DNA of 24,706 nucleotides. Origin: a virus. The stretch covers positions 1 through 24,706 of the IMG/VR virus record IMGVR_UViG_3300045988_008368, one strand, 5' to 3'. Numbering within the stretch: position 1 is the first letter of the stretch; each line of letters begins with the position of its first letter. Shown piece by piece: positions 4,877 through 24,389 of this stretch. The position numbers were made by a program, and so were the translations under genes. A model generated the notes under the pieces. That model searched no databases. It saw only the letters and a list, made by a program, of their open reading frames with translations, and had not been told where the DNA came from.

Positions 4877-5497
4877 ATGAAAAAATTCAATGACAGACTA
4901 CCTTTTTGCTTACAACTTTTTGCAGATGAAACTTCAGGTGAAAATGAGGGTACAGAAACAAAAAATACTCAATCAACTGAAGGACAAGACAACCAAGAAA
5001 AAAACAAAGCATCTGAAAAAAAGTATTCAGATGAAGATTTGAATGCGATTCTTGACAAAAGGTTTGCACGTTGGAAAGCGGATCAAGAAAAAGAAAAAGC
5101 AGAAGCTAAGCGCTTAGCAGAAATGAATGCTCAAGAACGAGCAGAAGCAGAACGTGATAAAGTAAAAAAAGAGTTGGATGAATTGAAAGCAAAAAATGCG
5201 ATTGCAGAAATGACAAATGAAGCACGCAAAATGTGCACAGAGCACAATATTAACGTTGGTGATGACCTTTTATCTGTTCTAGTTAATCAAGATGCAGATA
5301 AAACAAAGAAAGCGGTTGATGCATTCGTTAAGATGTTTGAATCTGAAGTAGAAAAAGCAGTTAAAGAAAAACTGAAAGGCAACGGTCCTAAACGTGGAGG
5401 TTCAAACAAAGGGGTAACTCGTGAATCAATCTTGAATATCACTGATCCGATGGAAAGACAACGCATGATTGCGGAAAACATGGATTTATTCCAGTAA
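4877..5497 (+). CDS. Capsid scaffolding protein
   Basis: Strong RBS AGGAGG. 206 aa, highly charged and coiled-coil-like (KADQEKEKAEAKRLAEMNAQERAEAERDKVKKELDELKAK). It lies immediately upstream of the major capsid gene. The N-terminal leader ends in LQLFA. Confidence 0.85.
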   Translation: MKKFNDRLPFCLQLFADETSGENEGTETKNTQSTEGQDNQEKNKASEKKYSDEDLNAILDKRFARWKADQEKEKAEAKRLAEMNAQERAEAERDKVKKELDELKAKNAIAEMTNEARKMCTEHNINVGDDLLSVLVNQDADKTKKAVDAFVKMFESEVEKAVKEKLKGNGPKRGGSNKGVTRESILNITDPMERQRMIAENMDLFQ

Positions 5498-6734: not shown

Positions 6735-7065
6735 ATGTCGACAACAACCGTATTAAATGATGTAAAACTGCTTCTTGGTTTGCAAACTGATGATGAAAAG
6801 CTAGATACCCATTGTAAGACTTACGGAAAGTCGACTAAAAGCGCTTCTGAGCGTAAAAATCATACCGGATGAACTAGAATATATCATTACCGAAGTGTCC
6901 ATCAAACGCTTTAATAGGATTGGTTCTGAGGGTGTTCAAACACATTCAGTTGAAGGGGAGTCAATGTCATTTAATGATGATGACTTCTCTTCTTTCTCTT
7001 CTGAGATTCAATCCTGGAGAGATGAGCAAGCCAATCAAAATAAAGGAAAGGTTCGGTTCTTATGA
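6735..7065 (+). pseudogene. Head-tail connector (gp6-like / Phage_connect_1-type) gene interrupted by a +1 frameshift
   Basis: ATG 6735 (RBS AGGTGA) gives MSTTTVLNDVKLLLGLQTDDEKLDT, then runs into nonsense and a TGA at 6870..6872. The +1 frame is open from 6805 to TGA 7063..7065. It reads (P)IVRLTESRLKALLSVKIIPDELEYIITEVSIKRFNRIGSEGVQTHSVEGESMSFNDDDF..., the conserved body of this family, and ends in an ATGA overlap with the next gene. The ORF track lists no ORF of at least 60 aa here, which fits a real break in the given sequence. Removing one C from the CCC run at 6808..6810 restores a single ~109-codon ORF. Confidence 0.75.
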
Positions 7066-7720: not shown

Positions 7721-8131
7721 ATGGATTCACAACAAGAGTTATTCATTGCACTAAAAGTGCAATTAGAAAAAGCGTTAAAAAGTAAAGGCGTTAATGTATA
7801 TGACACGTTTCTTCCAAGTGAAGGGACACCATATCCATATGTATACATTGGTTCAAGTCAACTAGTGGACGATTACGGAAATAAAACAATGATTCTAGGC
7901 ACTATCACGCAGGTTGTGGATGTTTGGCACAACAATCCTAGGAAGCGTGGAGAATTGTCTGAAATTATGCAAACCATTAAGAAAGTGGCTAGACAAATCA
8001 ACCACACAAACAACTTTGCTTTTATGATCCAAAATATCAACCAACGGATATTATCGGATTCAAGTACAGGAGCACCATTGATGCATGGTGTTCTAGAGTT
8101 GGATTTTAGAATTACAGGAGGAATAAAATAA
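7721..8131 (+). CDS. Tail terminator / tail completion protein (SPP1 gp17-like)
   Basis: 136 aa, immediately upstream of the major tail protein gene and overlapping it by 1 nt. Assigned by synteny and size only. Confidence 0.6.
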   Translation: MDSQQELFIALKVQLEKALKSKGVNVYDTFLPSEGTPYPYVYIGSSQLVDDYGNKTMILGTITQVVDVWHNNPRKRGELSEIMQTIKKVARQINHTNNFAFMIQNINQRILSDSSTGAPLMHGVLELDFRITGGIK

Positions 8132-8676
8132 TGAAATTTGATTTACAAATGTTCGCAGAAGCAATGAAAGAATCAGTTGCAGGTAAACAGTTGATCTATC
8201 TTTTCAGAGTTGCAGAAGATTCAAAAAAAGAAGATGCTAGTGCAATTGCATTCCCAACAGAAAACGAACGAAACGTAACAAAAGATGCAGATACTACTGC
8301 TACAAAAGATGGAACTATTCGTACACCATCAGTGGCAGAAATTGAAATCACATCAACATCTGTTTTGGCAAAAGGTGATGCAATTATCGACAAATTAGAA
8401 AAAGCCATGTTGGCAGATAAGTTAGTCGAATGTTGGGAAGTAAACTTAGCAGAAGAAGGAACTGAAACAAATGTCGGCAAGTTTAAATCTAAATACTACC
8501 AAGGATATTTGACTGAATGCTCAATTTCATCAGAAGCAGAAGGAGTTGTTGAAGTTGATTTAACATTCGGGGCAAATGGAAATGGTGCAGATGGATATGC
8601 AACAGTAACTAAAGAGCAACAGGAAGTAGCATCTTACGTTTATAAGGATGTAACTAAAGAAACAGGAAACGTATAG
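8131..8676 (+). CDS. Major tail protein
   Basis: 181 aa, in the position between the tail terminator and the G/GT chaperone, followed by a terminator hairpin as is common for highly expressed tail tube genes. The N-terminus MKFDLQMFA carries the same LQMFA motif as the capsid protein. Confidence 0.8.
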   Translation: MKFDLQMFAEAMKESVAGKQLIYLFRVAEDSKKEDASAIAFPTENERNVTKDADTTATKDGTIRTPSVAEIEITSTSVLAKGDAIIDKLEKAMLADKLVECWEVNLAEEGTETNVGKFKSKYYQGYLTECSISSEAEGVVEVDLTFGANGNGADGYATVTKEQQEVASYVYKDVTKETGNV

Positions 8677-8733: not shown

Positions 8734-9117
8734 ATGAGTAAATACATGGAAATTGAAGTAAATGGTGAAACATATCAACTAGTAGCAGGGTTTGGATTTT
8801 TACATGAAGTCAATAAAAGAGTGACTGTAGATGTACCAAACACTAAAAACAAAAAAGAAGTAGGTTTGAAGTTTATGGTCGCAAGCATCATGGATGGAGA
8901 TATTGATGCATTAGTCGATTGTATCTTCTGTATGAATATTGGGCAAACACCACGTTTAAATAAAGCATACATTGAAAGATATTTAGAAGATGTAGAAGAT
9001 ATCGACAAAGTTTTTGAGGACGTAATCAATTTTTTATCTCAAGCGAATGCGTGCAAGAAAGAAGTGAAATCACTGATGACGAGCATGCAGAAAGAAGAGA
9101 AAGAAGAGAAGAAATAG
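8734..9117 (+). CDS. Tail assembly chaperone (gpG analogue)
   Basis: 127 aa between the major tail protein and tape measure genes. It overlaps a downstream ORF in the -1 frame, the classic G/GT arrangement. Confidence 0.8.
   Translation: MSKYMEIEVNGETYQLVAGFGFLHEVNKRVTVDVPNTKNKKEVGLKFMVASIMDGDIDALVDCIFCMNIGQTPRLNKAYIERYLEDVEDIDKVFEDVINFLSQANACKKEVKSLMTSMQKEEKEEKK
9030..9036 (+). promoter_or_regulatory. Candidate -1 programmed ribosomal frameshift heptamer T_TTT_TTA
   Basis: In the G frame the codons are aaT TTT TTA, an X_XXY_YYZ heptamer. The -1 frame is open from 9018 (after TGA 9015..9017) to 9461, so this heptamer lies within the permissive overlap 9018..9117. Confidence 0.6.
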
Positions 9118-9461
9118 ACGAAACATTTGATGAAATGTATGAGCGTGTCGCTTTGACTTGTTTTAGATATCTAGACTTCAAAAGTTTGGATCAGGTAAAT
9201 AATCTTACCCCTCACGAATATCGCCTTTTAATGAAGGCCAAAGAGCTACAAATGGTGGATGATCAGTATTATCTGCATTTGCAAGCGTACCTAAATATGA
9301 CTGCACAAGCTAAAAAGCAAGTGGGCAAGAAACAGAAAATGGTATACACGAAATTTAGCAAGTTCTTTGACTATCAGAAAGAGTTGGATCGTGTCATGGG
9401 AATAAAGAAACAAAGCAAGTTTGATAAGTTGGCAGAGTTCATAAATAAAAAGGAGGGATAA
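9036..9461 (+). CDS. Frameshift extension of the tail assembly chaperone (gpT part of the G-T fusion, joined to 8734..9036)
   Basis: The track ORF 9051..9461 is in the -1 frame relative to 8734..9117, has no convincing RBS of its own, and ends 2 nt before the tape measure start. The predicted fusion is about 242 aa. Confidence 0.7.
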   Translation: MSSECVQERSEITDDEHAERRERREEIDETFDEMYERVALTCFRYLDFKSLDQVNNLTPHEYRLLMKAKELQMVDDQYYLHLQAYLNMTAQAKKQVGKKQKMVYTKFSKFFDYQKELDRVMGIKKQSKFDKLAEFINKKEG

Positions 9462-9463
9462 CA

Positions 9464-12286
9464 ATGGCAGAAAGTTTTAGTGTTGAAGCCATACTAACGG
9501 CAACCGATAAGAATATGACCTCAACCATGAACAAAGCTATAGGAGCGTGTCAGTCGTTTGGTGATAGAGTTAAATCTATCGTTGCAGGTGTCGGCATAAC
9601 AAAAGCTATTGGCGCAACAATGAACGTTCTTAGCTCATCCATGGATGGTGCTATCACAAGATTTGATACCATGCAATCCTATCCAAAAGTTATGAAGTCT
9701 TTGGGGTTTTCAATTGAACAATCTCAAAAGAGTGTTGCAAAGTTAAATCAGTCAGTACAAGGCTTACCTACAAACTTGGCAGATGTTGTAACAACATCTA
9801 AGTCGTTGGCTGCCGTTACAAGTAATATAGATAAGGCAACTGATACTACAATTGCATTAAATCATGCGTTTTTAGCGAGCGGTTCAAGCTCAGAAGATGC
9901 ATCACGTGGATTACAACAGTATTCACAGATGCTTGCTAAAGGTACAGTTGATATGCAATCATGGAGAACCTTACAAGAAACAATGGCACCAGCATTAACT
10001 AAAGTTGCAAAGAAACTAGGTATTACAAGTGGTAATGCAAATGAATTGTACGATGCATTACAGAATGGAACGATTACATTTGATCAGTTTAATGATGCAA
10101 TGATTGAATGTGATACAGAAACAGGTGGCTTTGCAGAAACTGCATTAGAAGCATCTAAAGGTATTAAAACTTCTATGACTAACATCAAGAGTGCAGTACA
10201 AAACTTAGAACAAGGGTTCTTGTCTGCAATGAATAACATGTTGAAGTCAAAAGCCATGGGTGGATTAGTTGATAATCTAGAAAAGATTAAATCTAAAATC
10301 TATGACTTTAGAAATTCAATCATGGAATCCAAGGATGATGGTTTGACATGGGACTTTAAGCCTGGAGTCTTGGAGAATGTATCAAAAGCTATGGATTGGC
10401 TTGCAGATAGAGCAAACAATGCTAAAGCTATGGTCCAACAATTCTATGATGGATTTATGAAGACAGATGCAGTACAAAACGCTATTACATTGTTCGACAA
10501 AGTCAAAGATGCTATTGGAAATGTAATGGATAAGTTGCAAGACAGTAAAGTCTTTGAGCAGTTAGGACAAGACATTGGAAATATCATTGCAAAAGTAGAA
10601 GATGTAACTGGCAAAATTGCAAATTTCATAGCAAATCTTAAAACGGAAGATGTTAAGAGATTTGCAAGTGCAGTCAAATTATTGGCAGGAGCATTTGTTG
10701 CGATCAAAGTCGGTAGCAAAGTATCTAGTATGATTAGTGGTGTCGTTGGCACGGCTAAAGGTGGATATTCAAAGTTAAAATCAATTATTGACAAAATCAG
10801 AGGATTAGGAGAAAAACCAACTCAAGAAATACCTGGACAATTACCACAAAATGGTACTCCAAGTGACGGTATTGGTGATGCAACAATGCGAACTGCTCAG
10901 AAAACATCTAAAGCTGCACAGATTATTAATTCTGCATTTGAAGGAATTTCAAATGTTATTACTTCGGTATGTGAAGGTGTAAAAGGAATTATAACAGGTC
11001 TAGGAGAAGCTATTAGTACTGCTTTTCAAGGTATCGGACAAGGCGTTAAATCGGCTTTGGAAGGAGTCGGAACAGTCATTGAATCGCTTGGTACTGCAAT
11101 CAGTACGGTAGCACAAGGTATTGGACAAGGGTTAGCAACTGCATTTACAGGATTAGGAACTGCAATCGCAATGGTGCCACCAACTACATGGCTTGCGTTG
11201 GCAGCGGCTATTCTAGCAACTGGTGCTGCAATGGCATTGGTTGGATCACAAGGTGAAGGTTTACAAATGGTTCTTCAGGGTGTTGCAGATGTTGTTTCTG
11301 CGTTTGGACCTGTTATCAAAGAAGTATTTGAAGGTATCAGTGGTGTAATTACATCATTCGGTGAAACAGTAAGTGGAATCTTAAACTCAGTATCAGGAGT
11401 GATTGAATCTATTGGCCAATCGGCATTAAATGCTGGTAAAGGATTTAAAGAATTAGCTAAAGGTATTCAGATTATTACTGGTTTAAATTTGTTTGATATG
11501 GGAGCTAGCTTAGCTGCAGTAGCAACCGGAATAGGAGCTATATCTGCAGCTTCTGTAGGCATAGGGAGCGCTGGTACTCAGATGATGGCCCTTGTAACTG
11601 CTATTGGTATGGTAGGTACTACATTTGCCAGTACGTCAGCTACAGTGACAAACTCATGCAATAACATTATCAGTGCAATGTCTGCAGCAGAAGCTAGGGC
11701 TTCAACTTCAGGAACTGCAATGGGCACTAAGTTTACATCAGGACTTAAAGGAAGCTTATCAAAGAGTGTTTCAGTAGCACGATCTTCATGTACTAACATC
11801 ATTAGCGCATTCAATGCGTGCCAGTCTAAATCTTATTACTGTGGTCAGATGATTGGTCAAGGATTGGCGAATGGTTTAAGAGCTAGTGAAGGTACTGTTA
11901 GAGCTGCGGCCGCTAGTTTAGCAGCAGCTGCAGATGCCGCAATTCGTGCAAAAGCTAAGATTGGCTCACCATCTAAAATTGCAGATAAAGATGGTATGTG
12001 GTGGGGTAAAGGATATCGCAATGGTATTTTAGGAATGGTTCCTCAGGTTAAAAAGGCTGCAGAGAAGTTATTATACCTTCCACTAATGAGCGCTCCTAAA
12101 ATGACTTTTGGAGGTGTTGTGAGTGATATGAATGCAGAATACGATTACACTAGCAACGTTCAATTAACGGTTGAAACACCACTTTACATTAATGATCGTG
12201 AATTTGCACGTGCAACATATAGAGCAAATCAGAATGAGATTAACAGAAATGCAAAGCTTAATGAGAGATTGCGAGGTAACAGATAA
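9464..12286 (+). CDS. Tail tape measure protein
   Basis: 940 aa, the longest ORF after the chaperone. It has a helical N-terminal half, Gly/Ala-rich hydrophobic repeats (GIGQGVKSALEGVGTVIESLGTAISTVAQGIGQGLATAFTGLGTAIA...) and a C-terminal AKIGSPSKIADKDGMWWGKGY motif typical of TMPs. Confidence 0.9.
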   Translation: MAESFSVEAILTATDKNMTSTMNKAIGACQSFGDRVKSIVAGVGITKAIGATMNVLSSSMDGAITRFDTMQSYPKVMKSLGFSIEQSQKSVAKLNQSVQGLPTNLADVVTTSKSLAAVTSNIDKATDTTIALNHAFLASGSSSEDASRGLQQYSQMLAKGTVDMQSWRTLQETMAPALTKVAKKLGITSGNANELYDALQNGTITFDQFNDAMIECDTETGGFAETALEASKGIKTSMTNIKSAVQNLEQGFLSAMNNMLKSKAMGGLVDNLEKIKSKIYDFRNSIMESKDDGLTWDFKPGVLENVSKAMDWLADRANNAKAMVQQFYDGFMKTDAVQNAITLFDKVKDAIGNVMDKLQDSKVFEQLGQDIGNIIAKVEDVTGKIANFIANLKTEDVKRFASAVKLLAGAFVAIKVGSKVSSMISGVVGTAKGGYSKLKSIIDKIRGLGEKPTQEIPGQLPQNGTPSDGIGDATMRTAQKTSKAAQIINSAFEGISNVITSVCEGVKGIITGLGEAISTAFQGIGQGVKSALEGVGTVIESLGTAISTVAQGIGQGLATAFTGLGTAIAMVPPTTWLALAAAILATGAAMALVGSQGEGLQMVLQGVADVVSAFGPVIKEVFEGISGVITSFGETVSGILNSVSGVIESIGQSALNAGKGFKELAKGIQIITGLNLFDMGASLAAVATGIGAISAASVGIGSAGTQMMALVTAIGMVGTTFASTSATVTNSCNNIISAMSAAEARASTSGTAMGTKFTSGLKGSLSKSVSVARSSCTNIISAFNACQSKSYYCGQMIGQGLANGLRASEGTVRAAAASLAAAADAAIRAKAKIGSPSKIADKDGMWWGKGYRNGILGMVPQVKKAAEKLLYLPLMSAPKMTFGGVVSDMNAEYDYTSNVQLTVETPLYINDREFARATYRANQNEINRNAKLNERLRGNR

Positions 12287-13812
12287 TGTATGCATTCGTA
12301 AATACAGTAAATAGTGGCATCGTCGGTACTAACCTACCGACAGAAGCCATGTCATATAATGGCGTATATTTAGAAAATGAAATAGATGGATATCGTACAC
12401 TTTCTGTAACAGGACGTGAGTTGATGGAATCAGAAGTAAAACATACTGAAATTGATGGAATGGATGGTTCTTATTACAGATATAAAACAACTCCTGCAAG
12501 AACGATTACTGTTAAATATCAGTTGAGAGCAAGAGGAAACAGAGAATTTCGAGAAGCTTACAACAAGATGAATAAATTGTTGAGTGGCGAGCAAGTAAAA
12601 GTCATTTTTAATGATGAAAGCGACAAGTATTTCATTGGAACTAAGACATCTAACACACAAGTTGATGGCGGAAGTAATAACGTAATCGGTGAAATCGAAA
12701 TCTATTGCTCAGACCCTAGGAAATATTCAACTGCAGAAAAAGAGTTCACTGCAACGGATGGAGTGTTAAACATTGTCAATGAAGGAACTGTACCTGTAAG
12801 TATTGATTATGAGGTTCAGACAACATCTGAAACCGGATATATTGGTATCGTATCAACTGAAGGAGTGATGCAGTATGGAAAGATTGAAGAATTAGATGGC
12901 GAAACATATCAGAACAGTGAATGTTTAGCTACAATCGATAGTTTTTATAATTGTGCAGATGATAAAAGTGGAACGGATATAATGCATCCACAGTACGGCG
13001 CTAATGGAACTTGTGCTAAAAAAAGTTGGTTTGGTCAAAACTTTCTAGGCTTTGGAACAGTCGGAACAAAAAAGGGGAATGCTAGTGGTGGATTAAGAAC
13101 GCTAGTAATACCTGCAGATTCAAATGGAGATTCAAGTGGTGCACAGAACTTCTATTGTTATTTTCATTTGTTGTTTTATGCAGGACTTATGGGTCAGACT
13201 GGTGAAATGTGCATCAACTTCTTGACTGCAGATAACAAATTGATTTGTGGATGTAACTTTTATAAAACAGATACAGTCGGAAATACAGGTCACTATGAAA
13301 TATGGGCGAATGGCAAGATGTTGAGAAATTGGAACTATACTACTTCTCATTTACAATCTCAAAATCCGTGGTATTGGAATTGGGGACATTGCGATATCTT
13401 GAAAGAAGGCGGAAATATCCGCTTCTTCTATTACGGAGGATATTACAATTATTACATTCCAGAGATTTCAAATATGAAGTGTGCCAAGATTCAAGTTGCT
13501 TTCAAACAATGGGGTAATCGAGGTGGAAATCAATTGATGTCTATGATGGGATTTGATGTAATCAATTATTTCAAAAATAATGTATCAAAATGGAGAAACA
13601 TCCCCAACAGATATCCTAATGGTACAAAAATCACGATTGATGGCAAGTCATCTCATGTTTATGTGAATGGTATGGCTAGACCTCAAGATGAGGTGCTAGG
13701 AACTAAGTATTTTAAAGCACCAGTAGGAACTACAGAGATAAAGACTACGTGCTCAAGCTGGTCAAAATCGAAGCCGACAGTGAAAGCTAGAATAAGGGAG
13801 GCATGGTTATAA
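12286..13812 (+). CDS. Distal tail protein (Dit), extended ('evolved') form
   Basis: It follows the TMP gene with a 1-nt overlap. The N-terminal ~170 aa (SYNGVYLENEIDGYRTLSVTGRELMESEV...) resemble the siphovirus Dit / phage tail family. At 508 aa it is about twice the size of a minimal Dit, which implies inserted domains. Confidence 0.7.
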   Translation: MYAFVNTVNSGIVGTNLPTEAMSYNGVYLENEIDGYRTLSVTGRELMESEVKHTEIDGMDGSYYRYKTTPARTITVKYQLRARGNREFREAYNKMNKLLSGEQVKVIFNDESDKYFIGTKTSNTQVDGGSNNVIGEIEIYCSDPRKYSTAEKEFTATDGVLNIVNEGTVPVSIDYEVQTTSETGYIGIVSTEGVMQYGKIEELDGETYQNSECLATIDSFYNCADDKSGTDIMHPQYGANGTCAKKSWFGQNFLGFGTVGTKKGNASGGLRTLVIPADSNGDSSGAQNFYCYFHLLFYAGLMGQTGEMCINFLTADNKLICGCNFYKTDTVGNTGHYEIWANGKMLRNWNYTTSHLQSQNPWYWNWGHCDILKEGGNIRFFYYGGYYNYYIPEISNMKCAKIQVAFKQWGNRGGNQLMSMMGFDVINYFKNNVSKWRNIPNRYPNGTKITIDGKSSHVYVNGMARPQDEVLGTKYFKAPVGTTEIKTTCSSWSKSKPTVKARIREAWL

Positions 13813-14987
13813 TGGAAAATATAAGAATCGCAGTATTAACTCCTTATGACAAAGTTCTAACGTTTCTAGACAACACAGTAACTAGTTGTATGCATTATTT
13901 TGATGAAACATTGCATACATACTTGAAAGGCTCAGCATATACATTTGAATTCACTACATTGACTGCACATGATGATGCAGCCTTTTTAGTTGAAGGAAAT
14001 AAACTGAGCTTTACAAGAAAAAACAAAGGCTACTACTTAACTATCATGAACGTTGAAAAGGGCGGTGATACAACAACTGTTACCGCCTATGGTCTTTGTC
14101 TTGAGTTAACAAACGAATATGTAGATGCATATAAAGCTCCTAGAGCTATGTCATTTGCGGAATATGTAAATGCGTATGGATTTGAGCAATCGTTTGTGAT
14201 TGGAAAAAATGAAGTATCAGATAAACGTATTACACACGAATGGACTGGCAGTGATACAGTGCTTGCAAGATTGTATTCAATCGCAAATGTATTTGATGCA
14301 GAGCTAGAGTTTGTTACTCAATTAAATGATGATTACTCGTTGAAGAATGTTGTGTTGAATATTTACAGAGCGCATTCAGATTCCGCTCAAGGAATGGGAA
14401 GTGATAAACGCAGTACGATCTTAAGATATCCTAATGATGTTTACGGAATCACTAAAACAAGTGATATTACAGAGTTGTATACAGGTATCAGACCTACGGG
14501 TAATAATGGGTTACAACTTAACTCGATTAGTGGCCGTGTTGTAAAAGATTCAAATGGAAATGTTTTGTATAAAGTTCAAGGTAACAATATACTTGCACCT
14601 CAATCTAGAGATAGATTTCCTTCAACATTGCTTACAAATCATTCAAACGATATGTATGCAGTGCTAGTGTGGTCTTATGAAACAGACAGTGTAGAAACCT
14701 TATATGGTCAAGCTTTGGCTCAATTGAAAAAGAATTGTGTTCCTAAAGTTACATACGATGTAGATGCATATATTGATGCAGATATCGGTGATACGTTTAC
14801 TATCGAAGATGCAGAGTATAGTCCTACATTGTATTTAGAAGCACGAATTACAGAACAAGAGATTTGTTTCACGGATTCCGAGAAGTGCAAGACTATTTTT
14901 GACAACTTTGAAGAAAAACAATCGCAGATTAGTTCGGCTCTTATTTCAGAAATGAACAAGATGATTGAGTTAAAAAAAAGTTTATGA
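13803..14987 (+). CDS. Tal / phage minor structural protein N-terminal (Prophage_tail-like) domain; upstream part of a split tail-fibre gene
   Basis: 394 aa after Dit. The start MENIRIAVLTPYDKVLTFLDN ... TAYGLCLELTNE resembles the anti-receptor N-terminal region of Lactococcus/Streptococcus phage Tal proteins. It ends 8 nt after an A8 tract, where the +1 frame continues the protein. Confidence 0.75.
   Translation: MVIMENIRIAVLTPYDKVLTFLDNTVTSCMHYFDETLHTYLKGSAYTFEFTTLTAHDDAAFLVEGNKLSFTRKNKGYYLTIMNVEKGGDTTTVTAYGLCLELTNEYVDAYKAPRAMSFAEYVNAYGFEQSFVIGKNEVSDKRITHEWTGSDTVLARLYSIANVFDAELEFVTQLNDDYSLKNVVLNIYRAHSDSAQGMGSDKRSTILRYPNDVYGITKTSDITELYTGIRPTGNNGLQLNSISGRVVKDSNGNVLYKVQGNNILAPQSRDRFPSTLLTNHSNDMYAVLVWSYETDSVETLYGQALAQLKKNCVPKVTYDVDAYIDADIGDTFTIEDAEYSPTLYLEARITEQEICFTDSEKCKTIFDNFEEKQSQISSALISEMNKMIELKKSL
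14972..14979 (+). repeat. A8 homopolymer at the frame break between the Tal N-domain and the fibre body
   Basis: The sequence reads gag tta aaa aaa agt tta TGA. The +1 frame is open from 14974 and reads KKVYEGSIVSSNGVLFKNDSDSTKLTALVKDDGVDIT..., running straight into the track ORF 15046..17412. Confidence 0.85.
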
Positions 14988-15045
14988 AGGTTCGATTGTA
15001 TCTTCAAATGGGGTTCTTTTTAAAAATGATTCAGATTCAACTAAA

Positions 15046-17412
15046 TTGACTGCATTGGTAAAGGATGATGGTGTTGATATTACATCTAAGTATTCAATTA
15101 TTTGGTACAAAGACGATGTGCAAATATCAACAAATCAAACTATCACAATTAGTGCATCAGACCTATCAGAAAAGGCTGTATATCGATTTAAAGCAATGAG
15201 TGGTGAAATACTTAAAGCAAGTGCAGAAGTCACTGTAATGCGATTGCAAGATGGTCAGAATGGAACAAGTGCATATGTACATATTGCCTATGCCAACAGT
15301 TCAGATGGTCGTGTTGATTTCAGTTTGACAGATTCAAATCGTAAATTTATTGGTCAGTATTCTGATAGTAAGCAATATGGTTCAGAAGACCCAACTAAAT
15401 ACCGATGGAGTGCAATTAAGGGCGAAGATGGTCAGTCATTTGTGAGTGCCGAAGAGCAGTTCTATTATTCGACTTCTCAAACCGAATTAATTGGTGGTGA
15501 GTGGTTTGTTGGTAATGTGGTTTATCAAAGTGATAAATTTCTTTGGAAAAGATGGAAATGTACGTATGCTAATCCTAGTGAAATCAAGTATACGAAAGCT
15601 ATTTTTGACAACACTTGGAATGAAATTGATGCGAAAATCAGTGAGATTCACACTCAAGTGTCTCAAGCAAATGTGCAATCAAAAGAAGCAGTTGAAAAAG
15701 CAACACAAGCTCAGACAGATGCAAGTAAAGCAAATGAATTGGCAAATACCGCTAACACTCAATCAAGCGAGGCTAAGCAACTAGCACAAGATGCGAATAC
15801 TAGCACTGGTAAAGCACAAGAACAGATTGATGCGATTAAAGGAGATATCACTGATTCAAAGCAACAGATTCAAGATGCAGTTGATAAGGCAAACACAAAC
15901 GCAAATGAAATCGGTACAATAAAAGAAACGTACGCTACAAAAGTTGATTTAACTACTGAATCAAAAACAATTCATGCAGATGTTACAACAGAAATTGAAA
16001 AGAAAGTCGGTGAATTATCGACTACTGTATCAGAAACTTATGCTTCTAAGAGTGATTTAACAAGCATTGAAGGTAGTTTAAATACCAAGATTAAACAAAA
16101 TGCCGATTCAATCACAACTCAAGCAAGTTCAATTGAAAAGTTGCAATCAGATACAACTAAAGCTCAGAAAGATATTATTGATGCAACAAAGAAAGCAACG
16201 GATGCTCAAGCTCAAGCGGATAAAGCGTTAGGTAATGCTCAAAGTGCTCAAACTCTAGCAGATGAAGCAAAGAAAAAAGCAGATAGTGCTCAAACTAACT
16301 TAGACAATGCTAATAAAGAATTGGCAGATGCAAAAGCTAATCTAGAATCAGTGACTGGTAGAGTTGATGCGACTGAGAGTGAAATTACAAAAGCTCAAAC
16401 ACGTTTAACAAACGCAGAATCTGCAGTACAGAAAGCTCAGTCTGATGCAACTAAGGCTCAAGGCAACGCAACTACGGCAATCAATAATGCAAAGGCAGCT
16501 CAAGGAGCGGCGGATGATGCAAAGCAGAAAGCAGAACAAGCTCAGAAAGATTTAGCAGATTTAACGAATAAAGTAACTTCAAATACAACGGCAATTGAGC
16601 AGAATGCAAAAGCTATTAAATTACAAGCTACTTCGGTAACTGAAATAAAAGGGGTTGCCAATACTGCAAACAGTAATGCATCAAGCGCATTGAATAAAGC
16701 TAATAGCTTAACTGATAGAGCCGATAAAGGTGAGTTTGATGGACGAGGTGTTGCAAGTACAACTGTTGAATATCAAGCATCTACATCTGGAACTATTGTG
16801 CCTACTGGAACGTGGTCTGCTACGATTCCTACTGTTGCTCAAGGTTCATATTTATGGACTAAGACTACAACTAACTATACAAGCGGAAATCCTACAATTG
16901 GATATTCTGTAGCTCGTATGGGTGTAAACGGTGCTAAGGGTGACAAAGGCGAAATCGGACAAACAGGACCTCAAGGGCCACAAGGAGTTAAGGGCGAGAC
17001 AGGTTCACAGGGTCCTCAAGGACTAAAAGGAGATACTGGTCCTAAAGGTGCTGATGGTAAATCACCAACTGTGTCTGTTAGCAAAAGTGGAAACACTACA
17101 ACTATTACTGTAAATAACCCTGATGGTACAAAAACAAGTCAAACTGTAAAAGATGGAACTAATGGAACTCCTGGTAAAGATGGAGCTACAGGAAAAACTA
17201 CATATTTTCATGTAAAGTATTCAAATGATGGTGGTAAAACATTTACTTCTAATTCAGGAGAGACTGTAGGGGATTATATTGGTACTTATACAGATTTTGT
17301 TGAGGCCGACTCTAATTCTGTTTCAAGTTATACATGGGCCAAAATAAAAGGAGCTCAAGGAGATAGAGGAGCCACTGGTGCCACAGGAGAACGTGGACCG
17401 CAAGGACCTTAG
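15046..17412 (+). CDS. Tail fibre body (continuation of Tal): coiled-coil rod, collagen-like repeats; terminated by an in-frame TAG
   Basis: 788 aa from a TTG with no RBS, and the frame is open back to 14974. It contains a long Ala/Gln/Lys/Thr-rich coiled coil (about 15650..16720), two of the three copies of a fibre module (YY.S.S.T...G.W......KYLW.R; the third copy is in 17416..18159), and Gly-X-Y repeats. The stop TAG 17410..17412 occupies a Y position in a Gly-X-Y repeat. Confidence 0.8.
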   Translation: MTALVKDDGVDITSKYSIIWYKDDVQISTNQTITISASDLSEKAVYRFKAMSGEILKASAEVTVMRLQDGQNGTSAYVHIAYANSSDGRVDFSLTDSNRKFIGQYSDSKQYGSEDPTKYRWSAIKGEDGQSFVSAEEQFYYSTSQTELIGGEWFVGNVVYQSDKFLWKRWKCTYANPSEIKYTKAIFDNTWNEIDAKISEIHTQVSQANVQSKEAVEKATQAQTDASKANELANTANTQSSEAKQLAQDANTSTGKAQEQIDAIKGDITDSKQQIQDAVDKANTNANEIGTIKETYATKVDLTTESKTIHADVTTEIEKKVGELSTTVSETYASKSDLTSIEGSLNTKIKQNADSITTQASSIEKLQSDTTKAQKDIIDATKKATDAQAQADKALGNAQSAQTLADEAKKKADSAQTNLDNANKELADAKANLESVTGRVDATESEITKAQTRLTNAESAVQKAQSDATKAQGNATTAINNAKAAQGAADDAKQKAEQAQKDLADLTNKVTSNTTAIEQNAKAIKLQATSVTEIKGVANTANSNASSALNKANSLTDRADKGEFDGRGVASTTVEYQASTSGTIVPTGTWSATIPTVAQGSYLWTKTTTNYTSGNPTIGYSVARMGVNGAKGDKGEIGQTGPQGPQGVKGETGSQGPQGLKGDTGPKGADGKSPTVSVSKSGNTTTITVNNPDGTKTSQTVKDGTNGTPGKDGATGKTTYFHVKYSNDGGKTFTSNSGETVGDYIGTYTDFVEADSNSVSSYTWAKIKGAQGDRGATGATGERGPQGP
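16921..17064 (+). repeat. Collagen-like Gly-X-Y repeat 1 (16 triplets)
   Basis: GVN GAK GDK GEI GQT GPQ GPQ GVK GET GSQ GPQ GLK GDT GPK GAD GKS, read directly from the sequence. Confidence 0.9.
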
Positions 17413-17475
17413 GGATTGAAAGGTGATAAAGGAGCAACAGGGGCTCAAGGCCCTACTGGTGCGACTGGTACTGGT
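17350..17475 (+). repeat. Collagen-like Gly-X-Y repeat 2 (14 triplets) containing an in-frame TAG
   Basis: GAQ GDR GAT GAT GER GPQ GP* GLK GDK GAT GAQ GPT GAT GTG. The Gly-X-Y register is preserved across TAG 17410..17412. Confidence 0.9.
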
Positions 17476-18159
17476 GTAGCTAGTATGACACAACAGTATT
17501 ACATGAGCGACTCGAAAACTACTCAAACCGGTGGCTCATGGGTTGAATCAATGCCTACGTGGTCAAATGGTAAATATTTATGGACTAGGTATAAAGTGGT
17601 TTATAAGAATCCTGCTTCAACAGTTTATACCACTCCTGTATGTAATAGTTCATGGGAAGCAGTCAATGAAGAACGTACAGAACGACAATCTGCCATTGAG
17701 ACAAAAGCGAATGAAATTACTGCGAAAGTTAGCGAAATTTACGTATCAAATTCGGCTTTGAATCATTATAAAGAAGAAGTATCTACTCAGTTTAGCCAAA
17801 CTAAGAGCGATTTTACGTGGTCAATTAATCGAAGCGTGACCGATGCTAAAAATGAAATGAATGGTCAAATCAGCAGTGTGAATGGTAGATTGGATGGTTT
17901 AAAACAAACCACAGACAACGTAAACAGTTATATGTCTTTTGATAACGATGCATTGACTTTAGGTAAATCAGACAGTGCATTTAAAACTAAAATCACAAAC
18001 CAAGAATGGTCGATTCAAAAGAATGGTGCAAAGGTAACATATATAAACGACCAAACAATGTACATTACAGATGGTCAATTTACGCAGTCTTTAAAAGTAG
18101 GTGCATTTGGTTTTGTACCAAGAGCTAATGGCTCATTGGACTTCAAGAAAGTAGGGTGA
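17416..18159 (+). CDS. C-terminal part of the split tail fibre (downstream of the in-frame TAG)
   Basis: The track start is a TTG one codon after the TAG, with no RBS. The sequence continues the collagen repeat and then a third copy of the fibre module (YYMSDSKTTQTGGSWVESMPTWSNGKYLWTRYKVVY). It ends GAFGFVPRANGSLDFKKVG, typical of fibre C-termini of this class. Confidence 0.75.
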   Translation: MKGDKGATGAQGPTGATGTGVASMTQQYYMSDSKTTQTGGSWVESMPTWSNGKYLWTRYKVVYKNPASTVYTTPVCNSSWEAVNEERTERQSAIETKANEITAKVSEIYVSNSALNHYKEEVSTQFSQTKSDFTWSINRSVTDAKNEMNGQISSVNGRLDGLKQTTDNVNSYMSFDNDALTLGKSDSAFKTKITNQEWSIQKNGAKVTYINDQTMYITDGQFTQSLKVGAFGFVPRANGSLDFKKVG

Positions 18160-18163
18160 TTAA

Positions 18164-20053
18164 ATGGCAGAATTTAGTGGTGGAATACAAATTGGTAGTG
18201 GTCAGTGGGATAAATACTCGTTAATATTACGAATCAATGAAATATCTTATTCTGTTGAAAACAACACATCATATGTAGAGTGGTGGGTTGGTATTCGATC
18301 TAATACGCAGTACCATACACACAATGGAATTCCAGAAACATTTAAAGTATCCGTGAATGGTACTCAAGTGTTAAACCAAAGCTTTACACCTAATGTGCCG
18401 GTAAATACGCTTGTTGGTGTAAAAAGTGGAACTGTAACTATTTCACATGATGCAGATGGTTCAAAAACAATTTCGGCAAGTGCATCTTTCAGCGGAAGTA
18501 ACTCTGGATATTATGCACCTATTACTGGTTCTTGCAGTGGTACTGTTAAATTGACAACTATTCCAAGAGCTTCAAGTATATCTATTGATAGCCCTAGCAT
18601 TGAATGTGGTAAAACTATAAATATTAATGGCTCGAGTGCTTCAAAAAACTTTACACATAAAATCTACGCAACATGGAATGGTAAAACAAGTGAATTAACA
18701 ACGATAAGTGGGACATTAACACCCACTTTTTCTTATACGATTCCTACCGCATGGGAAAAGGACTTACCTAATTCGATAAGCGGAATTGCTACATTTACAT
18801 TAGAAACATTCAGTGGTTCAACTTCGGTTGGCTCAAAATCAGTAAATGCAACAATTAAAGTAAGAAGTGGAGTCGTTCCTAGTGTTGGAACGGTCTCGAT
18901 ATCTGATACAAATTCAATCTGCGTAGGAATAGGTCAACATGTTCAAAGTCAATCAAGATTAAAGTTCTCAATTGCTACAAGTGGTAGTCAAGGCTCAACT
19001 GTTACATCTGTATCAACTAAATTTGAAGGACAAACATATAATGATAGTTCATTTACTACAGGTACTGTACAGGGAAGTGGCAAGTTGTCGTACACAATCA
19101 CAGTTACAGATTCACGTGGTCGAACTTCATCTAAGAGTGGTTCGGTCACTGTATCTGCATACAGTCCCCCAAGCTTAACGAATGTAACTGCAAAACGTGC
19201 TAACTCAAGTTATGCGATTGATGAGGCAAGTGGTACATATGCTTTATTACACTTCAAAGTTGGATTTACTAGTTTAAGCAATAAGAATGTAACATCATTC
19301 TATATTCAATATCGAGCAAGTGGTGCTAGTTCATGGACGAAAATAAATTCGTGGGATAACAACTACACGCTTGAACAAGATTACAAAGCAGGTAATTTAT
19401 TCACATCTGCAACAAGTTCCTATGAGGTTGCGTTCGGCGTTAAGGATAAGTTCATGAGTGATTATTCATGGCAAATATTTACTGTAGCTCCTGCTTACTC
19501 ATTGATAAACTTTGGTAAAGATGGAAGATCATTGACGCTCTTTGGTCAAGACGCTAATCAAAAAGATACATTAACTGTACTAGGTGATATTGTAGCTCCT
19601 ATTTTCTTAAATAAGATATTCCCAGTTGGCGCAGTCTATATCACATACGATAAAAAGAACCCTGGAACATTCCTAGGCGGGACATGGGAACAGTTTGGAC
19701 AAGGTAGAACATTAGTCGGTGAAGGCACTGGAAATGATGGTAGTACAAGTATGTCTTTTACTACTGATTCGAGCGGTGGTGAATATAAGCACAAACTGCT
19801 AGAAACTGAAATGCCGAAACATCATCATAGTGTGAGATTGATGGTTAAAGGATATGCTGGTTGGGAGGAACGAACTATTGACAGTTTTGGAGTAATGATT
19901 GATAGAAGCACAAAAAACTATGTCACTCCAAATGAAAAGGTTAATGCCACAGATGCTTCTGCGTTTGTTTATACTGGTTGGGCAGGAGATAATGTGCATC
20001 ATAATAACGTTCAACCCTACATAACCACGTTCTTTTGGCGAAGAACGCAATGA
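18164..20053 (+). CDS. Receptor-binding tail fibre / baseplate protein: DUF859-like N-terminal region plus C-terminal phage tail-collar domain (currently expressed tip = cassette 0)
   Basis: 629 aa. The N-terminus MAEFSGGIQIGSGQWDKYSLILRINEISYSVENNTSYVEWWV resembles the siphovirus DUF859-type structural proteins. The C-terminus IFPVGAVYITYDKKNPGTFLGGTWEQFGQGRTLVGEG ... GGEYKHKLLETEMPKHHH ... HHNNVQPYITTFFWRR matches the phage tail collar domain pattern (PF07484-like). Confidence 0.8.
   Translation: MAEFSGGIQIGSGQWDKYSLILRINEISYSVENNTSYVEWWVGIRSNTQYHTHNGIPETFKVSVNGTQVLNQSFTPNVPVNTLVGVKSGTVTISHDADGSKTISASASFSGSNSGYYAPITGSCSGTVKLTTIPRASSISIDSPSIECGKTININGSSASKNFTHKIYATWNGKTSELTTISGTLTPTFSYTIPTAWEKDLPNSISGIATFTLETFSGSTSVGSKSVNATIKVRSGVVPSVGTVSISDTNSICVGIGQHVQSQSRLKFSIATSGSQGSTVTSVSTKFEGQTYNDSSFTTGTVQGSGKLSYTITVTDSRGRTSSKSGSVTVSAYSPPSLTNVTAKRANSSYAIDEASGTYALLHFKVGFTSLSNKNVTSFYIQYRASGASSWTKINSWDNNYTLEQDYKAGNLFTSATSSYEVAFGVKDKFMSDYSWQIFTVAPAYSLINFGKDGRSLTLFGQDANQKDTLTVLGDIVAPIFLNKIFPVGAVYITYDKKNPGTFLGGTWEQFGQGRTLVGEGTGNDGSTSMSFTTDSSGGEYKHKLLETEMPKHHHSVRLMVKGYAGWEERTIDSFGVMIDRSTKNYVTPNEKVNATDASAFVYTGWAGDNVHHNNVQPYITTFFWRRTQ
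19749..19785 (+). repeat. Crossover site S0 (core GTATGTCTTTTAC 19749..19761) inside the expressed fibre gene
   Basis: GTATGTCTTTTACTACTGATTCGAGCGGTGGTGAATA. The reverse complement is found exactly at 20842..20878. The ATG of the core is codon 530 (Met) of the fibre. Confidence 0.85.
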
Positions 20054-20302
20054 TTATTTAATTCGTTTCCAAAAGTAAGTTACAATGGATGGCTGTAAAT
20101 TATTATGTGCTTGGTTTCCTCCTGTGTTTGTTGTATTACTCATATAGCCACCATTAAACCATGAGTTATTTGATGCGGATTGAATATTTCCTTTTCCGTC
20201 AATCCAAGCGCAGTCATTAAATTTATGCGCATGATTAGGCATTTCTTGTATTGTTAGTTGGTGCTTGTATTCTCCGTATGTTTTTCCGGATGTAAATGAC
20301 AT
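20054..20302 (-). CDS. Silent alternative fibre-tip cassette A (82 aa, collar-domain C-terminal half)
   Basis: MSFTSGKTYGEYKHQLTIQEMPNHAH ... GGNQAHNNLQPSIVTYFWKRIK is paralogous to the last 100 aa of the fibre. There is no Shine-Dalgarno sequence upstream. Its stop codon abuts the fibre stop codon. Confidence 0.75.
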   Translation of the reverse strand: MSFTSGKTYGEYKHQLTIQEMPNHAHKFNDCAWIDGKGNIQSASNNSWFNGGYMSNTTNTGGNQAHNNLQPSIVTYFWKRIK

Positions 20303-20304
20303 AC
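20292..20304 (-). repeat. Crossover site SA (core GTATGTCATTTAC on minus strand) at the start of cassette A
   Basis: The forward strand reads GTAAATGACATAC. The ATG of cassette A is 20302..20300. Confidence 0.75.
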
Positions 20305-20322
20305 TTTTAATCGGTTATATAG

Positions 20323-20335
20323 GTATGTCATTTAC
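20323..20335 (+). repeat. Crossover site SB (core GTATGTCATTTAC) at the start of cassette B
   Basis: It is head-to-head with SA, separated by 18 nt (20305..20322). The ATG of cassette B is at 20325. Confidence 0.75.
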
Positions 20336-20597
20336 AACCAATTCTGAAGGTGGTGAATACTATCATACGTTATCATATTCTGAAATGCCTGCTCACGCAC
20401 ACGAAGTTGGTATATGGGGTACGTCTGGCGTTTTAACAACTACTCCGTGGGAATTTATGGCCATTAATGGTTCGCATCATTCTGATGGTCAAAGTCACAA
20501 TGTAAATAGTATTCATACAAATGGATCTGGTGGCAATATTCCACACAATAACGTGCAACCATATTTAGTTGTTTTCTTTTGGCGAATGGTAAAATAG
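20325..20597 (+). CDS. Silent alternative fibre-tip cassette B (90 aa)
   Basis: MSFTTNSEGGEYYHTLSYSEMPAHAH ... GGNIPHNNVQPYLVVFFWRMVK. The track ORF (20265..) adds 20 spurious residues by reading antisense through the start of cassette A. There is no RBS. Confidence 0.75.
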   Translation: MSFTTNSEGGEYYHTLSYSEMPAHAHEVGIWGTSGVLTTTPWEFMAINGSHHSDGQSHNVNSIHTNGSGGNIPHNNVQPYLVVFFWRMVK

Positions 20598-20876
20598 CTA
20601 CTTGATACGTCTCCAAAAGTAAGTTACCACGTAAGGTTGTACATTATCGTGTGGTTTGTTTCCGCCTGTTGGCCATGTTTGACCGTACCAATAATAATTA
20701 GTTCTATTAGCACGTTCAGTGGCTCTCGTAAAAGGTACATCACTATATGGATTACCATATAATGCAGTGGTTACATCAGTTTGTTGGTCTAAGATCCAAT
20801 GCGTATGGCTCGGTAGCTCTTCACGTGTAAGTTTATGATAGTATTCACCACCGCTCGAATCAGTAGTAAAAGACAT
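20598..20876 (-). CDS. Silent alternative fibre-tip cassette C (92 aa)
   Basis: MSFTTDSSGGEYYHKLTREELPSHTH ... GGNKPHDNVQPYVVTYFWRRIK. The first 11.7 codons are nucleotide-identical to the expressed tip. Its stop codon abuts the cassette B stop. There is no RBS. Confidence 0.75.
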   Translation of the reverse strand: MSFTTDSSGGEYYHKLTREELPSHTHWILDQQTDVTTALYGNPYSDVPFTRATERANRTNYYWYGQTWPTGGNKPHDNVQPYVVTYFWRRIK

Positions 20877-20878
20877 AC
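20842..20878 (-). repeat. Crossover site SC (core GTATGTCTTTTAC on minus strand, 20866..20878) at the start of cassette C
   Basis: Perfect 37-nt reverse complement of S0. It lies 2 nt from the stop codon of the recombinase gene. Confidence 0.85.
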
Positions 20879-20880
20879 AT

Positions 20881-21774
20881 TTACTTGTAGTAATCGCAAA
20901 GTAATTCTACACATTTTCTTTTTAATTCCATTTGAGGATGAACGTAGATATTCATAGTGATCGAAACATTGGAATGGCCAAGTAATTCACTAAGTGATTT
21001 ATAATCACAACCACATTCAATGCATCTTGTTGCAAATGTGTGTCTTAATGCATGGAATTTGAGGTGTGGAAGTTCAAGGTCTTTAAGTAGTCGATTGTAG
21101 TAAAGCCTGTATTTATTAGGCTCTATCGGTTTATCTCGATTCGTTAATACATAGTTATCTGCATCACCTTGAAGCAATATAGCATAATGCATTATCCAAG
21201 CGTTAAGAGGAATCATACGAGTGCTAGAACGTGATTTAGGCGGTGTTATTGAAAGATGACTACCGTCTTCTTTTGTGTATGTACGTATCATGGTTTTATC
21301 TATTTTTAACAATTTGGTTTGAATGTTTATATCAGACCATTTCAAAGCGCATAGTTCACCTATGCGTATTCCAGTGTGGATGCATAACAGGATTCCAAAG
21401 TTTTTGTAATTAATCTCAGATTGGAGGTGATTAATCAATGAGATTTGATTTTCTTTTTCAAAAATTTCTACCGCCGTAGGAGGATGGTATGGAAGTTGAA
21501 TATCGATTTTAAATGGAAGTGTGAACTTCAGAATTTGAATAATGTCTTTGGCATATTTAAAAGAAATGCCACCTTTTCCATCTTTACGACCATTTTCAAG
21601 TTTTTGAAGAATAAACTCTTGCAGAATATCGTTATTCAATTCTTCAATTTTATATGTGCCAAGTGTTGGCAATACGTGATTATGAATCACATTACAATAA
21701 TTTGTGTAAGTGCTGTATTTTAGATAGATTTTCTTTTCTTTTAACCAAGAATGTAATTTGTCAGAATATAGCAT
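20881..21774 (-). CDS. Tyrosine site-specific recombinase (small XerC/D- or Rci-like); candidate invertase of the fibre-tip segment
   Basis: 297 aa with a GAGGT RBS. The catalytic pattern is present: HTGIRIGELCAL (Arg I), HALRHTFATR (H-x-x-R), LLGHSNVSITMNIYVH (His/Tyr). It is the only long minus-strand gene in an otherwise + strand late region, and it sits 4 nt from cassette C rather than in a lysogeny module. Confidence 0.85.
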   Translation of the reverse strand: MLYSDKLHSWLKEKKIYLKYSTYTNYCNVIHNHVLPTLGTYKIEELNNDILQEFILQKLENGRKDGKGGISFKYAKDIIQILKFTLPFKIDIQLPYHPPTAVEIFEKENQISLINHLQSEINYKNFGILLCIHTGIRIGELCALKWSDINIQTKLLKIDKTMIRTYTKEDGSHLSITPPKSRSSTRMIPLNAWIMHYAILLQGDADNYVLTNRDKPIEPNKYRLYYNRLLKDLELPHLKFHALRHTFATRCIECGCDYKSLSELLGHSNVSITMNIYVHPQMELKRKCVELLCDYYK

Positions 21775-23208: not shown

Positions 23209-23313
23209 ATGGAAGAAAAAGAAGTAAAATTTGAAGAATTATCAGAAGAAGCTCAATTAGAGCTATCAAATGGCAAAGAAGAAGGTGAAGAAGAATGTCA
23301 TATTCAAGCTTAA
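23209..23313 (+). CDS. Possible 34-aa acidic micro-ORF
   Basis: ATG lies 8 nt after a perfect AGGAGG. Product MEEKEVKFEELSEEAQLELSNGKEEGEEECHIQA. It overlaps the endolysin start by 19 nt in another frame and is too short for the ORF track. Confidence 0.35.
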   Translation: MEEKEVKFEELSEEAQLELSNGKEEGEEECHIQA

Positions 23314-24389
23314 CTAATAAATATATTCCTGCTAGTGCAGATAACTATATGTGTGGTCGTGGTGGTTACAAGGTATGTAAAATCACACCTCATCATATGG
23401 CTTGCGAATGGACTGCAGAACGATGCGCTCAGTCGTTCCAAGTAAGCGGACGTAATGCGAGTGCAAACTATTGCATCGGTTCAGATGGTACGATTGTTTC
23501 AAATGTTGACGAAGAAAACAGAGCGTGGACATCATCAAACTACTACAACGATTGCCAATCAATTACAATTGAAATTGCTAATGATAATACAGATACGTGG
23601 ACAATCTCACCAAAAGCTTGGAACGCATTAGTAAATCTATGTGTGGATGTATGTAAACGATATGGATTCAGATTAAATTATACTGGTGACTCAACTGGTA
23701 GTTTAACAGAGCATAGAATGTTCGCAGCAACATCTTGCCCAGGTCCTTATTTACATTCGAAAATGCCTCAATTAGCACAAGAAGTAAATGCTAGATTAGA
23801 TGGTCAAACTGTAGCACCAAGTGCTCCAAGTACTCCAAACACTCCAAGTGGAGAGAAGTATTCAGTCGGTATACCTATCTGCACAAATACATTAAGCGTT
23901 AACTGCTACGGAACTTCTAAAATCTTAAAAGGGGATTGGAACGGTTCAATTGGTAGAGTAATCAAAGGTGCTAAATATCCATATCGTGTTGATCGTAATG
24001 GAGTAGCTATTGGATGGACAAATGACACTGGTATTGATACTGACCCTCATACACCAGTAGGAGCAACAAAATCAAGTAGTGAAGCTATCGACCAAATCTT
24101 GCACGAAGGCAGCTATGTTACTTCTGTACATATGAAAATTGGCAATCAAGGATTGAAGAAAATTGGCGATGACTTATGTTGCTATTTATCAAAACTAGGT
24201 GGTTGGTTTCCAATTCGTTTGGTAGATAAAGTACCAAACTCAGATGGATACAATGACAATGTATTGCATACTACAAATGCAGTAGTCTATGTATCTAGAA
24301 TCAGAGTCGATGCAGTGAATGTTCAAAAGAATATTGTTAAAATTGGCGGTATTTGGGTTGACCCAACACCATTAACAGAAATTGCATAA
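23295..24389 (+). CDS. Endolysin: N-acetylmuramoyl-L-alanine amidase (Amidase_2/PGRP-like) plus Pro/Ser linker plus two C-terminal cell-wall-binding-like modules
   Basis: PHHMAC ... SANYCIGSDG ... ENRAWTSSN ... SITIEIAND ... HRMFAATSCPG is the Amidase_2 zinc-amidase pattern. The linker is APSAPSTPNTPSGE. It is the last gene of the lysis cassette and is followed by a strong terminator. Confidence 0.85.
   Translation: MSYSSLTNKYIPASADNYMCGRGGYKVCKITPHHMACEWTAERCAQSFQVSGRNASANYCIGSDGTIVSNVDEENRAWTSSNYYNDCQSITIEIANDNTDTWTISPKAWNALVNLCVDVCKRYGFRLNYTGDSTGSLTEHRMFAATSCPGPYLHSKMPQLAQEVNARLDGQTVAPSAPSTPNTPSGEKYSVGIPICTNTLSVNCYGTSKILKGDWNGSIGRVIKGAKYPYRVDRNGVAIGWTNDTGIDTDPHTPVGATKSSSEAIDQILHEGSYVTSVHMKIGNQGLKKIGDDLCCYLSKLGGWFPIRLVDKVPNSDGYNDNVLHTTNAVVYVSRIRVDAVNVQKNIVKIGGIWVDPTPLTEIA

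Follow-up and report, generated by a model that had tools for sequence, protein, structure and literature searches.

Related systems and the phage record

The Q-beta A1 protein is a minor extended virion protein produced by programmed stop-codon read-through, and programmed read-through sites are conserved among relatives. Phages with a recoded stop codon usually encode a suppressor tRNA. Near-cognate decoding of UAG inserts glutamine, and a basal level of it would restore the wild-type protein in a few ribosomes. Reassignment of TAG to glutamine (genetic code 15) has been described in gut phages (bioRxiv 10.1101/2021.08.26.457843; PMC9523058; PMC10607447), in which many in-frame TAGs occur; 41 open reading frames (ORFs) contain TAG in phAss-1 (PMC10607447).

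The stretch of DNA analysed here (the window, 24,706 nucleotides) is the entire IMG/VR virus record IMGVR_UViG_3300045988_008368, which is estimated to be ~59% complete. Like code 15 phages, it comes from the human gut and has an in-frame TAG at a glutamine position of a late gene; unlike them, it has just one such TAG, ends nine genes at TAG and yielded no tRNA in the ~33 kb of phage sequence scanned. As in Q-beta-type read-through, the reading frame of a virion protein runs on at length beyond the stop, but the stop is missing from every relative examined. The likeness is closest to defective or cryptic prophages with amber and frameshift mutations, which have the same derived, lineage-private, single-base lesions in essential virion genes, with several lesions in one element and intact alleles circulating in other samples. 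Nothing essential differs from such prophages, except that here the lesions appear unusually recent, with almost no other private changes.

The interrupted gene is also of a known type. Streptococcus thermophilus phages have tail-associated (Tal) proteins or antireceptors with collagen-like repeats (TP-778L orf42, the P4761 antireceptor and the D1024 receptor binding protein), and the gp16 tail fibre of Ruminococcus gnavus phages is similar. The gene in the window occupies the same place after Dit and has the same N-terminal Prophage_tail domain and long fibre with Gly-X-Y runs. It differs in being split into three ORFs and in being distant in sequence; tblastn comparison with the S. thermophilus and R. 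gnavus phage fibres gave 30-43% identity over 47-69% of the protein.

The window contains a siphovirus late operon with genes for portal, MuF, Prp, scaffold, capsid, connector and tail proteins, and it also carries a recombinase gene. The genes that frame the locus, and the lysis gene, are:

9464-12286: tape measure gene
12286-13812: Dit gene
18164-20053: DUF859/Gp10_C tail protein gene
23295-24389: gene for an Amidase_2 protein, presumably the endolysin

Megablast against GenBank phages returned a match of only 44 nt, showing that the phage has no close cultured relative. The closest capsid protein was that of Dorea phage DO134P1 (60.7%). When species genomes in GTDB were scanned with the Tal protein, only distant matches were detected, in Absicoccus, Coprococcus and Eubacterium (33-60% in segments). 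The phage is a temperate siphovirus from human gut metagenome assemblies, and its closest cultured relatives infect gut Firmicutes.

The Tal gene and its in-frame TAG

The features of the interrupted gene are:

13803-14987, plus strand: Tal N-terminal domain (Prophage_tail, PF06605; N-terminal parts of phrog_588 and phrog_6468), ending early after the A8 frameshift
14972-14979, plus strand: A8 homopolymer with one A more than any relative has (77 of 77 aligned loci lack 1 nt here), which shifts the frame between the Tal N-terminal domain and the fibre body
14974-17409, plus strand: middle part of Tal in the +1 frame, with a coiled-coil, two fibre modules and the collagen runs
16921-17064, plus strand: first collagen-like run, 16 triplets (Pfam Collagen, residues 626-671 of the 788-aa ORF), holding the paralogous GPQGLKGD (17011-17034)
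17350-17475, plus strand: second collagen-like run, 14 Gly-X-Y triplets with the TAG in triplet 7 (Pfam Collagen and CFSR matches on the ORF)
17410-17412, plus strand: derived amber codon (CAG to TAG) at the Y position of a collagen-like triplet in the Tal/host-specificity gene, as judged from the sequence, the closest DNA relative and homologous proteins
17413-18159, plus strand: C-terminal 248 Tal codons cut off by the TAG (100% identity to the 1448-aa proteins; identical to the closest DNA relative)

The first-pass annotation, made from the sequence alone, placed an in-frame TAG at the Y position of a collagen-like triplet, and this is what the DNA contains: positions 17410-17412 are the TAG in gga gaa cgt gga ccg caa gga cct TAG gga ttg aaa ggt gat aaa gga. 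Translation in the frame of the ORF at 15046-17412 gives ...KGAQGDRGATGATGERGPQGP before the stop and GLKGDKGATGAQGPTGATGTG... after it, with GERGPQGP directly preceding the stop. The TAG is the Y residue of triplet 7 in a run of 14 uninterrupted Gly-X-Y triplets (17350-17475). As the annotation also described, the register continues for seven triplets 3' of the TAG and then enters a third copy of the fibre module 'YxxSxSxTxxxGxW...G.YLWT', two further copies of which lie upstream of the TAG. The claimed 248 codons beyond the stop were borne out by a frame that stays open to the TGA at 18157-18159, and the paralogous GPQ GLK GD at 17011-17034 reads ggt cct caa gga cta aaa gga gat, as had been reported.

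The gene model proposed for the locus, a 788-aa protein followed by 248 lost codons, did not hold. Relatives encode one continuous Tal/host-specificity protein of 1448 aa that covers the window ORFs at 13803-14987, 14974-17412 and 17413-18159, and the A8 tract breaks it a second time, upstream of the TAG. When the read-through translation was used as a database query, dozens of 1448-aa proteins were detected, all of them single polypeptides, with 95-100% identity across the part queried (read-through ORF residues 560-1037). At the first ORF junction the relatives are unbroken and read ...NKMIELKKVYEGSIVSS..., and also ...MIELKKVYEGSIV... and ...ELKKVYEGS...; at the TAG site they are unbroken as well and read ...GERGPQGPQGLKGDKG..., with GPQGPQGLKG in the collagen run. 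Because these single polypeptides read across both breaks, the native product is the 1448-aa Tal/host-specificity protein. The Tal N-terminal domain in 13803-14987 corresponds to residues 1-392 of the relatives' protein. No natural start codon exists for the '788-aa' ORF: the listed TTG at 15046 is not one, and the frame is already open from 14974. PHROG profiles annotated as 'tail fiber protein and host specificity' gave the same picture, with the ORFs at 13803-14987, 15046-17412 and 17416-18159 matching successive parts of one profile. The order of tape measure (9464-12286), Dit (12286-13812) and a gp27-like Prophage_tail domain (PF06605) in 13803-14987, with a fibre extension towards the C terminus, fits a siphovirus Tal, and 63 of the 70 relatives that are complete at both ends have one unbroken Tal ORF.

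The statement that the downstream ORF has no ribosome-binding site is not strictly true, as a Shine-Dalgarno-like AAGGA is present at 17402-17406, 9 nt 5' of the TTG at 17416. Re-initiation at this TTG as an evolved feature was rejected because the AAGGA is merely part of the Gln-Gly-Pro codons and the same bases are present in the closest DNA relative, in which the gene is intact.

The interrupted codon among relatives and the accompanying lesions

The comparison at the DNA level drew on 78 IMG/VR relatives and the Logan contig L002, to which nine more near-identical loci from other samples were then added. L002, which comes from another run, is the closest DNA relative, being 97.2% identical over 15.5 kb. 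Within the gene after position 13900, it differs from the window by an A7 instead of the A8, by C instead of T at 17410 and by three substitutions; between 17189 and 18200, position 17410 is the sole difference. Among homologous proteins, 118 of 120 have glutamine at the TAG position, the remaining two having one lysine and one isoleucine, and the codon in 31 DNA-aligned loci is CAG in 25, CAA in four, AAA in one and TAG in one. The comparison of orthologous codons, which had been proposed as a check, thus upheld the expectation that glutamine belongs at this position and that a single transition turned CAG into TAG. No interruption at the site was detected in the 120 proteins, and no stop codon in the 30 other aligned loci; the sole locus with TAG, L003, is a twin assembly of the same phage. 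Of the alternatives that had been listed for the TAG, these data favour the nonsense mutation. Neither read-through, with or without a suppressor, nor local recoding finds support: the stop is conserved in no relative, TAG ends nine other genes, and no tRNA was found in the window and the 8.8 kb upstream of it.

Intact alleles were present on contigs of at least 10 different sample or run accessions, and many other gut samples contain intact phages that are nearly identical. The TAG allele was detected only in three ENA assemblies, each 100% identical to the window. IMG/VR and JGI metagenome contigs gave no match to an exact 44-mer of the TAG allele, nor to the CAG control allele, so these collections are uninformative on allele frequency. 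One relative (L078) has its own independent TGA nonsense codon in the Tal gene, indicating that such lesions recur among the relatives of this phage.

The TAG and the A8 are accompanied by a third lesion, in the gene for the head-tail connector:

6735-7064, plus strand: head-tail connector gene (Phage_connect_1; the intact protein of relatives has 109 aa), which an extra C breaks so that it stops after 45 codons

The extra C lies at 6806-6808, where 64 of 64 aligned loci are 1 nt shorter, and gene calls on the twin scaffold likewise give a connector product of just 45 aa. At positions covered by at least four relatives of at least 98.5% local identity (13,289 nt), seven changes are private to the window: a nonsense codon, two +1 frameshifts, and two missense and two synonymous substitutions. 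All five private substitutions are transitions. Three of the seven changes, namely the TAG, the A8 and the extra C, destroy virion genes. Compared with intact alleles from other samples, the Tal gene has one other private substitution besides its lesions. With just seven private changes over 13,289 positions, the lesions, which are private to one lineage, must be very young.

Exact products of the broken ORFs were detected in ERZ28578059 scaffold_338, ERZ27229522 k119_21157 and ERZ917547 (run ERR1578647) k127_60879, and all three ENA assemblies match the window at 100% identity across the lesions. Judged by name and form, the four assemblies comprise the IMG/VR contig, two MEGAHIT contigs (k119 and k127) and a scaffold built from paired reads that contains an N gap. 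All four agree on the A8 and the TAG, and the connector lesion is covered by two, as the 39.6-kb scaffold_338 also has the broken connector gene. The concordance of different assemblers excludes an assembler artefact. The four assemblies may nevertheless derive from one sample or read set, and hence do not confirm the reads independently: a common read set is suggested by a shared contig break, in that the N gap of the scaffold ends exactly at window position 1 and another contig of the ERR1578647 assembly (L005) begins at the same base. Two of the ENA assembly records name run ERR1578647. A literature search for PRJEB15111 returned nothing.

Explanations for the interrupted gene

We consider it very probable that the TAG is a plain CAG-to-TAG nonsense mutation in a defective prophage with multiple lesions. 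A spontaneous C-to-T transition in the lysogen lineage would have turned a conserved glutamine codon into an amber stop. Translation would then stop at this codon, and no useful amount would be made of the distal 248 residues (the remainder of the collagen stalk, the third fibre module and the C-terminal domain). The A8 insertion is predicted to detach the fibre, independently of the TAG, from the Tal N-terminal domain that anchors it to the tail tip, and the connector frameshift would block the joining of heads and tails. The element is probably a decaying defective prophage or phage variant that forms no infectious virions on its own, to judge by the reading frames of its virion genes.

The lesions could instead be sequencing or consensus errors in a phage whose true sequence is CAG, A7 and CC. 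Two of the three lesions are +1 homopolymer insertions, a classic type of error, and three disruptive changes among seven is above the usual neutral spectrum, which leaves room for sequencing error or a mutator background; read errors are also possible if the assemblies that carry the lesions share one read set, as their common contig break suggests they may. However, different assemblers gave the same A8 and the same TAG in four assemblies, and the contig names and paired-read scaffolding suggest short reads, which seldom produce homopolymer errors in a consensus. A frame-breaking indel relative to the relatives was detected in only one of 15 homopolymer runs of at least seven bases, which argues against an error-prone assembly of homopolymers or a long-read consensus error. 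The change from CC to CCC involves no long homopolymer, and the C-to-T change is a substitution and so no homopolymer artefact. We therefore regard sequencing error as improbable.

The other alternatives accept the TAG as real and have it decoded. Under genetic code 15, as in some crAss-like and other gut phages, TAG would simply encode glutamine, which is consistent with the glutamine position of the TAG and with a human-gut origin, as TAG-recoded phages are common there (bioRxiv 10.1101/2021.08.26.457843; PMC9523058). However, 24.7 kb of sequence contain one in-frame TAG, whereas TAG ends nine other genes of the window, including those for the major capsid protein (5519-6724), the major tail protein (8131-8676) and the tail chaperone (8734-9117). 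The capsid protein keeps the 401-aa length that it has in two relatives (L002 and L092), and relatives have CAG or CAA at the site. These nine terminators are incompatible with genome-wide reassignment of TAG to glutamine and argue against an efficient suppressor; recoding was rejected on this stop-codon usage, and we give it next to no credence. Functional read-through by a near-cognate tRNA-Gln or by an amber suppressor of the host or phage, which would yield the short fibre and some full-length fibre, draws on the expectation that near-cognate decoding of UAG gives glutamine, the wild-type residue, and on the 248 downstream codons, which are still identical to those of intact alleles; that identity is equally explained by a very recent mutation. 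A suppressor tRNA, which the first-pass annotation had suggested searching for, did not turn up on the phage side: ARAGORN found no tRNA in the window, its twin L003 and 8.8 kb more of the same phage upstream of the window (L004), a search that covered ~33 kb of phage sequence alone. Rfam, at its gathering thresholds, found no family in the window and the upstream 8.8 kb. An efficient suppressor would extend the capsid protein, the major tail protein and seven other proteins whose genes end at TAG. None of 120 homologues and none of the 30 other aligned loci has the stop, which speaks against an evolved feature, and since it is absent from every relative, the conserved stop and context that define programmed read-through are not found here. 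Read-through alone would also leave the virion unrescued, given the upstream frameshift in the same protein and the broken connector. Functional read-through is for these reasons highly unlikely.

A related proposal, that the broken phage persists by rescue, either through low-level decoding of UAG as glutamine combined with transcriptional slippage at the A8 or in trans through a close, intact relative in the same sample, at which assembly breaks at a mosaic boundary hint, is in our judgement very doubtful. If it were true, the TAG would mark an allele that is tolerated and partly suppressed, with the fibre made in short and long forms. With the nonsense mutation as the preferred reading, the TAG is a textbook amber mutation, which passes neither as code 15 recoding nor as programmed read-through.

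The importance of the finding beyond annotation is small. The ORFs at 13803-14987, 15046-17412 and 17416-18159 are best annotated together, as a single disrupted Tal/host-specificity pseudogene instead of three separate proteins. The record also deserves a flag as probably defective, and its 'short fibre' should be taken neither as a natural variant nor as evidence for stop-codon recoding. A lone in-frame TAG at a glutamine position in a gut phage is no evidence for genetic code 15.

Early ends of the Tal gene in relatives

The ORF encoding Tal, the tail-associated host-specificity protein, terminated early in six relatives. Tal ended at residue 1133 in five of them (L048, L053, L059, L077, and L079), and the first stop in the sixth, L083, was at residue 584. 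In L048, the only one of the six that was examined, separate ORFs that begin at ATG codons of their own (MAIKA...) lay downstream of the shortened Tal, and the final one had the same C-terminal domain as the Tal of the window. This multi-gene form of the fibre is natural and differs from the split that mutation produced in the window. In L078, another IMG/VR relative, the Tal gene (9001-13029) has a single nonsense codon of independent origin, a TGA at codon 815 (AQT*ADEAKKK), where the relatives encode Leu; it falls in the coiled-coil part of the gene.

Changes peculiar to the window lineage

All five substitutions private to the window lineage (positions 4945, 4967, 11566, 15640, and 17410) were transitions, four of them C-to-T or G-to-A. 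Mismatch-repair deficiency of the host or deamination of cytosine might account for this spectrum and the two +1 indels, but the numbers are too small to tell.

The terminase region and the break at position 1

Position 1 of the window was the exact break point in three assemblies and lies inside the TerS/TerL overlap. At this point, which corresponds to 8728-8764 of L004 (a sequence that adds 8.8 kb of the same phage upstream of the window), the ENA scaffold is interrupted by 37 Ns. A mosaic boundary among the relatives coincides with this position, the identity of L090 being 99.7% to the left and 92.7% to the right. These data suggest that the sample contained another, related phage, which forks the assembly graph.

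A poly-G tract was observed outside the window (L004 7906-7914), in the gene upstream of TerS. The tract is G8 in the phage of the window, leaving a 113-aa ORF intact, and G9 in the relative L088; the called ORF is just 49 aa in both L088 and L090. The tract is possibly phase-variable or, alternatively, an error hot spot.

The tail-fibre tip shufflon

A tail-fibre tip shufflon occupies 19742-21774 of the window.

Features in and beside the shufflon
18164-20053, expressed DUF859/Gp10_C gene, upstream of the silent cassettes
20054-20302, minus strand, first of three silent Gp10_C cassettes
20265-20597, plus strand, second silent Gp10_C cassette
20598-20876, minus strand, third silent Gp10_C cassette
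20881-21774, minus strand, tyrosine recombinase, after the cassettes

The four crossover sites share a common core, GTATGTCWTTTAC, and alternate in orientation. The twin ENA scaffold represents a recombined form of the shufflon, since 20304 (window coordinates) is joined directly to 20866 there.
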